Shown here: positions 20,476-60,453 of the stretch, piece by piece | Position numbering within the stretch: the first letter of the stretch is position 1 | How the letters are laid out: every line of letters starts with the position of its first letter | NCBI GenBank assembly: GCA_038215155.1 | Contig: JBBQRF010000003.1 | Span: 65,904-129,903 of the forward strand | Length of the DNA stretch: 64,000 nt | Source of the DNA: Minisyncoccia bacterium | GTDB taxonomy: Bacteria > Patescibacteriota > Minisyncoccia > Phycocordibacterales > CAJBRS01 | Direction: 5' to 3' | Made by a program: the position numbers and the translations under genes | The notes under the pieces: generated by a model | Databases searched by the model: none | Told to the model about the DNA's origin: nothing | Seen by the model: the letters and a program-made list of their open reading frames with translations, nothing else

Positions 20476-20623
20476 ATATAAAAATAGGATTCGGTCACAC
20501 ATAATTTTTTGCTAAAAATTTGTGCGACCCCGTCTCGCGCCGTCGCGCTCCGACCTTCGAATCCTCTATCACCGCCCAATGACAACCACTCGAAGTGCTC
20601 CCAGCACTTCTTGCGGATCATTG

Positions 20624-20696: not shown

Positions 20697-20791
20697 TTTT
20701 AAACGCGGTAAGGGTAAACACTACCTAACAATCTTCTGACCGATCTTGGAGCATGGAAGCTACTTAGCCATAGAATTATTCTCACCCCCTA

Positions 20792-20833
20792 GACAACGTC
20801 AATGTTGCGCTCTACCAACTGAGCTAACCGCGC
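20792..20833 (-). pseudogene. tRNA-Val 5' fragment (acceptor through anticodon loop, 41 nt) duplicated about 100 nt upstream of the intact gene
   Basis: reverse complement GCGCGGTTAGCTCAGTTGGTAGAGCGCAACATTGACGTTGTC matches the intact tRNA-Val except the acceptor bases, then diverges; no T-arm follows. Confidence 0.6.
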
Positions 20834-21328
20834 TTAGAATCAATTTATCATTTTATATTTACCTAAACAAATTTCCCAAAAAAACCGCCTTTGTATAAAG
20901 CCTTGCTCCGTCTATTAGAGGGTGCCTAAGGTTATAACCTATTTAAATAAAACCTAAAAGTTAGATTGAATAGCTTGAAATATTCCTTTATTTTGCTCGA
21001 CAGTGTAATTATAAGCGTCGTTAAAATTGAATTTAAAAAAAGATAGATATACCCCTAGAATTATTAAAGCAACTAAGTAAAAAACTTTTGACTTCATAAA
21101 GTTATTATAGACCGGTTTGCAACAGATGAATATTGGCTGTGTGGGTAGGGATCTAACCCTAGAGAGTCTCTGGTGAATTCATGCCCACGATCACAGATAA
21201 TTTTCTCGCCGATGGTATCCGAAATCCTATGCGTCGCCAGCACAAACGTCTTTTGTTTAGCCATAACTCACAAAAGTCTAAGTGCTTCGACATCACGAAT
21301 ATATAGTCGCTTCGCTCGTTATATTCTG

Positions 21329-21564: not shown

Positions 21565-21785
21565 CTGGTTCGAATAATTCTATGGTAAGAAGCCCTAAAC
21601 TCCAATGTATGTGGCAGGATGTTTTGAAGAATTTTCCTCCCGCCTCCGCAAAAATAAGGAACGAAGTGACTATATTTTTGCAGCCCTTCGCCCGAGGGCT
21701 CAGGATCTTCGAGATGCCGCAAAGACAAATTTTTATATATTTACAATGGTGCAGAAAATTTATTTTACCCCAACCTTCGAATTAA

Positions 21786-40084: not shown

Positions 40085-40120
40085 TAAAGTCCGTAAAGTC
40101 CGTAAAGTCCGTAAAGTCCG
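40085..40120. repeat. 9-bp tandem repeat (taaagtccg) x4 in the tRNA spacer
   Basis: four exact head-to-tail copies, fifth degenerate (taaagattc); followed by tttatagac x2. Confidence 0.8.
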
Positions 40121-40174
40121 TAAAGATTCTGCTTTATAGACTTTATAGACCTTATGACTTTTTCGACTATCATG

Positions 40175-47745: not shown

Positions 47746-48662
47746 CAAAAACAAGGAGCGTTAGCGACTATGCTTTTTGCAGGGTGCCGACGACTCGGTC
47801 GCGGCCCCGCCATCCACCTAATCCTCTTATCTTTCTTAAACCAGGTCATTTGGCGTTGGGCGTAATGCCAGATTTCAGTTTCTAATTTTTCAATCATTTC
47901 TTTTTTAGAAAGTTTCCCCTGCAAATGTTTAGCAAGGTAGCGATACTCGAGCCCTAGCTCATCCATTCTTCTCCACGAGAGGCCATTTTTATGAAGCCTT
48001 TTGGCTTCAGCGATCATGCCGCGCCTCAATCGCAGACGGAGGCGCGCCCTAATTTTCTTTTTTAGGATTTCCTCTTTAACTTTAATACCGATCAGAGTGG
48101 CGGAATATTTTGGTTCACTTTTAATTTTCGGAACACTTCCCAAAGCGGTGGCAATTTCGATCGCCCGGATAAGTCGCCGCGGATTTTGCTGATCAATGAC
48201 GGCAGCTCTTTCGGGATCCAGTCTCTCTAAAATACTATAGAGTTGTGAAACGGAGTTTTGTTTCAGTTTGTTACGAAGTTTCAGATTGGCCGAAACTTCC
48301 GGAAGCACTAGATTGTCCACTACCGCTTGTATATAAAAACCAGTACCTCCACAAACAATTGGAAGCTTTCCCTTGTCAATAATTACGTTAATAGCCTTTT
48401 CGGCTAAGCGTTTGTACTCATCTACCGAAAAGTATTTTTTTGGAAGTGCCACGTCTAATAAATAGTGAGGCACTCCTTGCATTTCTTTTTTTGTAATTTT
48501 TCCTGTGCCGATATCCAAACCTTTATAGATCTGGCGCGAATCAGCTGAGACGATTTCCCCATTTAATCTTTTGGCCAGTTTTACCGCCAAGGTGCTTTTC
48601 CCAGAGGCAGTAGGGCCGACAATAACTAAAATTTTCGGATTAGCAGAATAGGGCTTTTTCAT
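47700..48662 (-). CDS. miaA: tRNA dimethylallyltransferase
   Basis: P-loop GPTASGKST, SADSRQIYKGLDIGTGK; C-terminal tail overlaps tRNA-Trp on the opposite strand. Confidence 0.85.
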   Translation of the reverse strand: MKKPYSANPKILVIVGPTASGKSTLAVKLAKRLNGEIVSADSRQIYKGLDIGTGKITKKEMQGVPHYLLDVALPKKYFSVDEYKRLAEKAINVIIDKGKLPIVCGGTGFYIQAVVDNLVLPEVSANLKLRNKLKQNSVSQLYSILERLDPERAAVIDQQNPRRLIRAIEIATALGSVPKIKSEPKYSATLIGIKVKEEILKKKIRARLRLRLRRGMIAEAKRLHKNGLSWRRMDELGLEYRYLAKHLQGKLSKKEMIEKLETEIWHYAQRQMTWFKKDKRIRWMAGPRPSRRHPAKSIVANAPCFCGPTPTRTENLSFGD

Positions 48663-59619: not shown

Positions 59620-60063
59620 ATGTCACATACACCAGAAAGAGACGAAACTTTTAATAATCTAGGCCAAAATAGTGACCGAGATCCCTTATTCAAGGAAAGG
59701 CACGATCTTATTTCAGACAAAGACGGTTTTCAATCTAACTTAACCCCAGACGAAGGAATGATGGCTAAGGAGGATGCCGAATTAAGGGCTAAGATTCTTA
59801 AACTACAGCAGGAAATCGGCGCTTTAGGGGCAGATGATTTAATGCGCCAAATGAAAGAAGGGAAAATTCAACAAATGTTTGAAGAGATGGGTGTTAATGA
59901 ATCAACTTTTCTATTAGAGGAGATCAACCGCCTTCAGGCAGAAATTTATCCTCTAGATTTAAAAGATGAGATGAGAAAGATGAAAGAGCAAAAAATTTCC
60001 GCCTTTAAAGACCGGCTAGAGGAAATAAATAAAAATTCTGACCAAGAAAAATTAGCAGCATAA
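59620..60063 (+). CDS. hypothetical acidic coiled-coil protein
   Basis: ORF only; no similarity to YbaB, which usually follows dnaX. Confidence 0.35.
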   Translation: MSHTPERDETFNNLGQNSDRDPLFKERHDLISDKDGFQSNLTPDEGMMAKEDAELRAKILKLQQEIGALGADDLMRQMKEGKIQQMFEEMGVNESTFLLEEINRLQAEIYPLDLKDEMRKMKEQKISAFKDRLEEINKNSDQEKLAA

Positions 60064-60080
60064 ATTTGCAGCGTAATATT

Positions 60081-60180
60081 TGCGGGATCGTCTAATGGTA
60101 GGCTCCCTGTTTACACACGACGCATTGCGAGTGTTCCAGTAAACAGCAGTGCCGATGACTCATTCATCGGCAGTCCGCAA
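60081..60180 (+). pseudogene. tRNA-Gln 5' fragment (22 nt identical) fused to a 100-nt hairpin-rich pseudo-tRNA-like segment
   Basis: TGCGGGATCGTCTAATGGTAGG is identical to the start of tRNA-Gln at 60232; then hairpins ctgtttac..gtaaacag and gccgatga ctcat tcatcggc, ending gTCCGCA (acceptor-complement-like). Confidence 0.5.
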
Positions 60181-60231
60181 CAGGGTCGGTATAATGTTAA
60201 TGGGTTAAGAGAATGTAATAATTTAATATAT

Positions 60232-60302
60232 TGCGGGATCGTCTAATGGTAGGACAACGGATTTTGGATCCGTTTATCTAGGTTCGAATCCTAGTCCCGC
60301 AG
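60232..60302 (+). tRNA. tRNA-Gln (anticodon TTG), U1:A72
   Basis: TGCGGGATCGTCTAATGGTAGGACAACGGATTTTGGATCCGTTTATCTAGGTTCGAATCCTAGTCCCGCAG. Confidence 0.85.
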
Positions 60303-60453
60303 CCGCCAATTTTTAAGAAGAGAATCGACTATAAAAATTGAGCGCGTCGCCGCTCCTCATGAGGCGACGTAGACTATTTTTTAACGAAGGAGGAAACGAC
60401 TGAATATAAAATTTCAGCGCGCCGACGAATCTTTGAGTTGGCATAATCAAACT

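Follow-up and report, generated by a model that had tools for sequence, protein, structure and literature searches.

The question raised by this locus is what should be made of a stretch of about 100 nt that begins exactly as a tRNA-Gln gene begins, continues as something else, and stands just upstream of the intact gene whose start it repeats. The window, that is, the whole 64-kb stretch of DNA that was analysed, is bacterial, with a G+C content of 41.5%, 14 tRNA genes, and a class A RNase P RNA, and the nearest homologues of its proteins belong to Parcubacteria/Paceibacterota-type MAGs. The partial copy, referred to here as the relic, and the tRNA-Gln(UUG) gene sit 3' of an orphan 147-aa ORF (59620-60063), with a pseudouridine synthase gene downstream on the opposite strand. 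The neighbouring genes encode a peptidase, Dus, DnaX, the orphan ORF product, the pseudouridine synthase, and MsrA, for which the Pfam domains are Peptidase_S11, Dus, DNA pol III, PseudoU_synth_2, PMSR, or none. The orphan ORF, a plus-strand reading frame flanked by dnaX and the relic, is only a candidate gene; its product would be rich in charged residues and coiled-coil-like, it has no Pfam domain, and a search of 5.8 billion proteins returned no homologue but itself.

The intact tRNA-Gln(UUG) gene at 60232-60304 (+) is called by ARAGORN and by Rfam (RF00005, 66.3 bits). Position -1 and positions 1-22 of this gene are duplicated exactly at 60080-60102 (+), where 23 of 23 nt are the same as at 60231-60253. 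The repeat, TTGCGGGATCGTCTAATGGTAGG, covers the 5' acceptor strand and continues through the D-stem and the D-loop as far as the second base in the 3' strand of the D-stem; after position 22, the tRNA homology ends. Consequently, the identity of 22 nt that was originally reported between 60081 and the start of the gene at 60232 is real and is in fact one nt longer. A chance origin is contradicted by the finding that the repeat has only these two matches in the window, even when up to three mismatches are permitted, for a chance expectation of 0.01. The start of the relic lies 151 nt from that of the intact gene. Since an independent assembly of the same organism (Logan contig L001) has an identical module, an assembly artefact is ruled out.

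What follows the repeat is not tRNA sequence. Filler at 60103-60149 (+) begins exactly where the tRNA homology stops and contains a first hairpin, whose perfect 8-bp stem (CTGTTTAC/GTAAACAG, at 60107-60114/60139-60146) begins 4 nt after the break at tRNA position 22. The 24 nt between its arms themselves form ACAC..GTGT and CGC..GCG helices, and the hairpin occupies the place of the anticodon arm, to which it is unrelated. A second hairpin, TGCCGATGA-CTCAT-TCATCGGCA (60150-60172, +), has a perfect 9-bp stem with arms at 60150-60158/60164-60172 and a 5-nt loop; it takes the place of the T-arm, lacks the T-loop consensus, and is not matched by the Rfam tRNA model. Thus, both of the strong hairpins that had been proposed are present, each with a perfect stem.

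The unit closes with AGTCCGCA at 60172-60179 (+), which is read as a remnant of the tRNA 3' end (positions 64-72). Compared with AGTCCCGCA, the 3' end of the intact gene, a single C has been deleted, and a one-edit match of this kind is reached by just 1.1% of shuffled spacers. In the minimum free energy (MFE) fold, the remnant pairs with the 5' strand through five Watson-Crick pairs and one G-U pair. The original prediction had called attention to GTCCGCA as a near-complement of the acceptor strand. This heptamer does indeed lie at 60173-60179, but its complementarity carries no weight on its own, since a 7-mer that pairs at six or more of the seven positions occurs in 94% of shuffled spacers; accordingly, this line of argument was dropped. 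Given that the 5' repeat is exact and that AGTCCGCA is one deletion from AGTCCCGCA, the unit retains the two termini of a complete tRNA-Gln copy. In between, 69 nt of unrelated, hairpin-forming sequence have taken the place of positions 23-63, which comprise the anticodon arm, the variable loop, and the T-arm. The whole 101-nt stretch folds into a tRNA-like structure with four arms, i.e., an acceptor stem, a D-arm, and two further arms, with an MFE of -39.3 kcal/mol (z = -4.41; none of 200 shuffles was as stable). This agrees with the tRNA-like shape of about 100 nt first described for this locus, in which the acceptor stem and the D-arm are retained, a long stem-loop stands in for the anticodon arm, and the T-loop is not canonical.

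Despite this shape, the relic is not a tRNA. ARAGORN, which had been suggested as a check, calls none at 60081-60179 and finds only the intact gene at 60232-60304. Rfam assigns no family to the relic, either at the gathering threshold or at E ≤ 10, and its tRNA model again finds only the intact tRNA-Gln. On inspection, the anticodon arm and the T-loop are absent, while the exact 23-nt repeat and a 3' end within one edit of AGTCCCGCA are what a tRNA pseudogene or fragment would have. The relic is separated from the intact gene by an A+T-rich spacer (60180-60231, +) with no trace of a nuclease gene. Between the two also lies a promoter-like TCGGCA-17 nt-TATAAT (60167-60195, +), which matches the consensus at 10 of 12 positions and, judged from this match, is possibly the promoter of the tRNA-Gln gene itself. 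The interior of the relic has no similarity elsewhere in the window, and a blastn search for homologues of the module in 120 genome loci (among the matches listed) and 80 metagenome loci found nothing past the 22-mer. A metagenome scan with a 20-mer spanning the junction gave 0 matches. Exact-protein look-ups, made in search of close relatives, gave only contigs of the same organism; the best homologue of the pseudouridine synthase (RluB) has 71% identity, and L122, the locus that encodes it, shows no synteny. The collections searched yielded no close relative of this genome.

A second unit of a similar kind is found in the window beside tRNA-Val(GAC). This 131-nt unit, Val' (20703-20833, -), ends 6 nt upstream of the tRNA-Val gene and has 35 nt identical to it, which cover the D-arm and the greater part of the anticodon arm, with the anticodon GAC among them. 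Its acceptor stem (GCGCGGT/ACCGCGT) differs from that of the gene (GGGCGAT/ATCGCCC) by two compensatory pairs, its T-stem (AGGGG/CCCTT) shows one compensatory pair, and about 70 nt replace its T-loop. No tRNA call was made for Val' by ARAGORN, nor by Rfam at E ≤ 5. Since Val' adds to the tRNA-Gln relic, the phenomenon is seen at least twice in the window.

Several other stretches near tRNA genes were recorded along the way. About 45 nt downstream of the tRNA-Val gene (20554-20581) lies an inverted copy of its T-arm and 3' acceptor strand, which could form a hairpin of about 25 bp with the 3' half of the tRNA; L063 has an inverted T-arm copy of a similar kind after its tRNA-Gln. Directly after tRNA-Ser(CGA), the stretch 21566-21645 (+) has a T-loop-like GGTTCGAAT, then AATTCTATGG, and ends in CCTCCCGCCTCCGC, which resembles the 3' end of tRNA-Ser. 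The first 20 nt or so of this insert (GAATAATTCTATGG.AAG.AGC) recur in the T-loop insert of Val', 800 nt away on the other strand, and the stretch is a candidate for a third relic, one that carries a related insertion. At a distance of 10-100 nt, tRNA-Glu, tRNA-Ser, and tRNA-Trp are followed by a motif of about 30 nt, GGARCG.WAGYGACTAT.YTTTTGCAGSS, which has no match in Rfam. Its sites are 21295-21317 (-), 21655-21690 (+), 47755-47790 (+), 60320-60352 (+), and 60395-60427 (+); two looser copies after tRNA-Gln form a 26-nt direct repeat with 81% identity, and a similar GCGAGGGACTATA follows tRNA-Gln in L069. Finally, four tandem copies of CTTTACGGA, with a repeated AAGTCTATAAAG before them, lie between tRNA-Cys and tRNA-Leu(UAA) (40090-40125, -).

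The reading of the relic draws largely on other genomes. A scan for the 22-mer, limited to one genome per species, gave at least 120 loci, and 106 listed tRNA-Gln loci that share the 22-mer and have at least 400 nt of upstream sequence were scored. Among the matches listed, a tRNA fragment lies upstream in 13 of these 106 (k ≥ 11), against a chance expectation of about one, and un-annotated partial tRNA copies lie beside the tRNA gene at many of the listed loci. At nine of the 106, again among the matches listed, tRNA-Gln is immediately preceded on its own strand by an ORF for a GIY-YIG nuclease, and in seven of these nine, a 5' tRNA-Gln fragment is found just upstream of the ORF. Eight or so listed loci (L035, L043, L063, L065, L112, L121, L096, and L019) resemble the window in having the fragment without the nuclease. 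The spacing between fragment and tRNA is 277-426 nt at the nuclease-bearing loci and 74-169 nt at the nuclease-less ones. Neither the fragment nor the nuclease layout is present in any of the 26 listed loci with the same 22-mer that are labelled Actinomycetota. A lone 5' fragment of tRNA-Gln (22-23 nt) followed by non-tRNA sequence was also seen in L067, where the nearest tRNA-Gln(CUG) is about 5 kb off.

Whether or not a nuclease is present, the first breakpoint falls at positions 10-26 of tRNA-Gln (22 in the window). It is at 21 in L027, 25 in L050, 19-20 in L063, and 18 in L112; in two cases, the homology is interrupted, breaking at 10 and resuming to about 25 in L071, and breaking at 12 and resuming to 20 in L011. 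L065 breaks at 22, as the window does, and the next bases are also identical to those of the window (GGTAGG before the break, CTCC after it). The 50 nt past 15 breakpoints fold with a median of -14.5 kcal/mol, versus -6.0 kcal/mol for controls from the same loci (Mann-Whitney p = 0.001), and the corresponding value for the window is -14.0 kcal/mol. This MFE comparison took the place of a strict hairpin test, in which a perfect 7-bp stem no more than 6 nt from the breakpoint was found at only 2 of 16 breakpoints, versus a background of 6.8%. A 3' acceptor stub is kept after the hairpin in L027 and L109 as well, and the acceptor strand is locally paired in the window, L027, L054, L063, L109, and L112. 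In L054, which consists of two copies in tandem, a hairpin has taken over part of the T-loop, and three compensatory pairs distinguish the two acceptor stems.

The nuclease of these loci is a protein of about 80 aa that consists of the catalytic domain only (Pfam GIY-YIG, E 1e-13 to 1e-17). Its nearest solved structures are the UPF0213 proteins 1zg2 and 1ywl, and NCBIfam gives it no name. It has no DNA-binding domain; for this reason, sequence-specific homing is not the sole possibility for it. The association with tRNA genes was seen again in an independent sample of 80 metagenomic loci, fetched with two of the nucleases and chosen solely for encoding a relative, 77 of which could be scored. 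A tRNA gene on the same strand is near the nuclease in 53 of the 77, lying at most 150 nt downstream in 34 and at most 300 nt upstream in 19 more, and in 38 of the 53, a partial copy of the same tRNA is found on the opposite side of the nuclease gene. The layout is either 5' fragment, nuclease, and tRNA or tRNA, nuclease, and 3' fragment. The tRNAs involved are those for Gln, Cys, Asn, Met, Lys, Ser, Asp, Ala, Gly, Leu, Glu, His, and Phe, and the subclades of the nuclease track the isotype: nearest-neighbour nucleases have their isotype in common in 32 of 51 cases, where 4.9 would be expected and 2000 permutations gave 14 at most. Occasionally, related nucleases have switched isotype, as in a Gln/Lys pair with 77% identity.

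Some of these nuclease loci have further peculiarities. In two tRNA-Gln loci, L005 and L109, the GIY-YIG frame has no stop before the tRNA and reads through the tRNA-Gln gene, so that the 5' part of the tRNA translates as AGSSNGRT. In L129/L130 and L137, two copies of one tRNA (Gln, Lys), both of which ARAGORN can call, flank the nuclease gene. In L129, the outer copy has its 3' acceptor strand (GCTCGGCA) beyond the inner tRNA; consequently, the unit of nuclease and tRNA is nested in the outer tRNA gene.

There are also indications of gain and of loss. L029 appears as a filled site, with a nuclease, tRNA-Gln, and a second, disrupted copy, while L085 appears as an empty site, in which the upstream gene of L029 (74% identity) precedes just one tRNA-Gln and a nuclease is absent. 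Two cassettes, L029 and L050, lie on one contig, at tRNA-Gln(UUG) and tRNA-Gln(CUG). In L121, a GIY-YIG pseudogene interrupted by stops (E = 4e-11) lies between the fragment and the tRNA, and L069 retains a C-terminal stub of the nuclease. Comparison of these loci suggests a decay series that runs from intact nuclease to pseudogene to nothing, with the window most likely at the last stage. In the window, a 5' fragment upstream and an intact tRNA downstream lie on the same strand, 151 nt apart, and the homology breaks in the D-arm region (after position 22) and gives way to a stable hairpin. What is missing is a small GIY-YIG ORF between the two. A profile from four cassette nucleases found no GIY-YIG gene among the six-frame ORFs of the 64-kb window, and a 10-sequence profile found no remnant (E > 8) in the six frames of 60081-60231.

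Taken together, these results have led to the hypothesis that the relic is a dead paralogue of tRNA-Gln, probably generated by a recurrent process in Patescibacteria that involves a GIY-YIG nuclease and a tRNA gene and from which the nuclease has since been lost. Given that related bacteria show the same layout with a GIY-YIG gene in between, the copy in the window is most likely a scar without its nuclease, and an earlier nuclease-bearing stage is presumed from this comparison. In this model, a UPF0213-type GIY-YIG gene of about 80 aa would reside within a tRNA gene that a partial duplication has made whole again. The resulting cassette would consist of a tRNA 5' fragment, the nuclease gene, and an intact tRNA, or would have the reverse order, with a 3' fragment instead. 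The nuclease, which is predicted to cut tRNA genes, would break an uninterrupted tRNA gene; the broken ends would then pair with the two tRNA sequences of a donor cassette, namely the fragment and the intact gene, and everything in between would be copied in, as in homing. The tRNA itself would supply the homology arm, and so the cassette could spread between lineages that share little else. Late in such a cycle, loss of the nuclease gene would leave the fragment, the hairpin filler, and the intact gene. A point against this model is that pure decay would not demand a filler as strongly structured as the one seen. The compensatory differences between copies (Val', L054, L005, L045, and L129) would be explained if the copies had come from different lineages, and if so, selection on the dead copy is not required. 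The first suggestion that a recurring process duplicates the 5' portions of tRNAs has therefore held up well: a 5' fragment and hairpin followed by an intact tRNA is found in many Patescibacteria, together with small GIY-YIG genes between fragment and tRNA and intermediates in which the nuclease has decayed.

A simpler explanation, in which the tRNA-Gln gene was duplicated in tandem and the upstream copy decayed by mutation with no nuclease or mobile element, is considered unlikely, although it has points in its favor. Both ends of a full tRNA copy have been kept, the copies are merely 151 nt apart, and no mobile-element gene is present. However, decay by point mutation would not leave 23 nt unchanged beside a 41-nt interior that has been swapped for 69 nt, and the breakpoint with its immediate hairpin matches what is seen at the nuclease-bearing loci, where intermediates with decayed nuclease genes also exist.

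The hairpins themselves recur in ways that deserve attention. The module TGCGCC-NNN-GGCGCA, together with a second hairpin, directly follows the GGTTC of the T-loop in nine cases, including one tRNA-Lys, and lies in the anticodon loop in others; the module CTTGCCCCGC...GCGGGGTGAA is found in D-loops and anticodon loops (L005, L043, L109, and L131). Conserved hairpin modules were also seen in L119, L125-L133, and L137. In disrupted tRNA copies, the insertion points appear fixed, after GGTTC in the T-loop, after CTTT in the anticodon loop, and in the D-loop, and the modules are common to different genomes and to both tRNA-Gln and tRNA-Lys. In L124 and L125, the same module forms a direct repeat around the nuclease and tRNA. 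The recurrent hairpins may be separate insertions, substrates of the nuclease, products of repair, or features that have been kept, in the last case perhaps as a block to re-cleavage, to recombination between the repeats, or to mispairing in the transcript. Palindromes made by fold-back repair were considered and rejected, given that neither in the window nor in L054 do the hairpin arms reproduce the tRNA sequence next to them.

These recurrences have suggested a more tentative idea, which is given a rather low probability: that the hairpin-bearing relics are working parts of an undescribed mobile element of Patescibacteria, whose modules insert at fixed positions in tRNA loops. A GIY-YIG nuclease with a catalytic domain only, perhaps one that recognises DNA structure, would act together with short hairpin modules, which would insert at the D-loop, at 35/36 of the anticodon loop, and at 56/57 of the T-loop. 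Conserved tRNA sequence would serve as portable homology arms and allow movement between distant lineages. The hairpins, those of the relic among them, might then be kept to prevent re-cleavage, to prevent repeat recombination that deletes the element, or to sequester the duplicated acceptor strand in the transcript.

The alternative offered in the original prediction, that the module is a functional tRNA-like RNA such as a decoy, a processing element, or an insulating element, now seems improbable. In one version, the local stem would sequester the duplicated 5' acceptor strand, so that in a shared transcript it could not mispair with the genuine tRNA. In favor of such an RNA are the stability of the fold, which is very high given its composition (z = -4.4), the local pairing of the acceptor strand at the six loci listed above, and the recurrent, non-random occurrence of the breakpoint hairpins. 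Like the tRNA-like domain of tmRNA or mascRNA, the relic has an acceptor-like stem that closes hairpin arms. Unlike these RNAs, it has no Rfam match (E ≤ 10), no T-loop consensus, and no conservation in other genomes. It also has no anticodon loop, a homologue of its interior was absent wherever one was sought (200 related loci and the metagenome scan), and the equivalent modules elsewhere share neither its sequence nor its architecture. In addition, the best promoter-like site is downstream rather than upstream of the module. The relic probably has no function of its own.

Integrases that target tRNA genes normally duplicate the 3' part of the tRNA, with the element separating the duplicate from the gene. 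That the relic marks the attachment site of an integrase-type element, once present in tRNA-Gln and later lost, is very improbable: integrating elements are known to leave tRNA gene fragments beside tRNA genes that can confuse annotation (PMC9897764), and a partial, non-functional tRNA copy near an intact gene is indeed what is seen, but here the duplicate is a 5' fragment with a 3' stub, it lies 151 nt upstream, there is neither an integrase nor an element in between, and no integrase or other recombinase gene is found among the neighbours. Group I introns that self-splice to leave a functional tRNA, mostly without endonuclease genes, have been found in tRNA genes of the same phylum, where they escape annotation by standard tools (PMC13011429), and the outer tRNA copies of L005 and L129 would be nearly complete if their insertions were removed; nevertheless, the idea that the relic is a real tRNA gene with short introns is effectively refuted by its sequence, since positions 23-63 are absent and no excision can restore the anticodon arm or the T-arm, the 69-nt insert is far below the size of a group I ribozyme, neither a group I intron model nor any other intron family is matched within 59950-60450 (E ≤ 10), and an intact second copy lies alongside.

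How, then, does the proposed process compare with known homing systems? SegB, which is phage-borne, has a DNA-binding region besides its catalytic domain. This free-standing GIY-YIG homing endonuclease is encoded in the tRNA gene cluster of phages T4 and T6; its cleavage sites lie within tRNA genes, it favors its own inheritance together with the flanking tRNA DNA, and it brings about tandem amplification of the tRNA with segB (PMC2330249; PMC13096335). In both systems, a GIY-YIG gene adjoins tRNA genes. However, the genes in Patescibacteria encode UPF0213-type proteins of about 80 aa with the catalytic domain only, they are located in cellular genomes, and they are nested in a partially duplicated tRNA gene, with one isotype per subclade; the window itself lacks any nuclease gene. 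Literature searches returned no account of Patescibacteria with GIY-YIG genes nested inside duplicated tRNA genes. Thus, the relic itself is ordinary, but the underlying process appears to be an undescribed variant of homing-endonuclease biology.

Comparison of the loci suggests that the GIY-YIG/tRNA cassette is widespread in the phylum and that the window most likely represents its nuclease-less end state. Small single-domain GIY-YIG genes of Patescibacteria are very often nested in partially duplicated tRNA genes, and such cassettes would leave behind fragments, hairpin-filled dead copies, and tandem arrays. For annotation, the lesson is that relics of this kind can be mistaken for tRNAs or for new RNAs. 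If confirmed, this process would account for many of the odd tRNA-gene neighbourhoods in the reduced genomes of Patescibacteria and would give a mobile role to part of the abundant, uncharacterised UPF0213 family. It would also provide a case in which a selfish gene uses a universally conserved RNA gene both as its landing site and as its homology arm across lineages.
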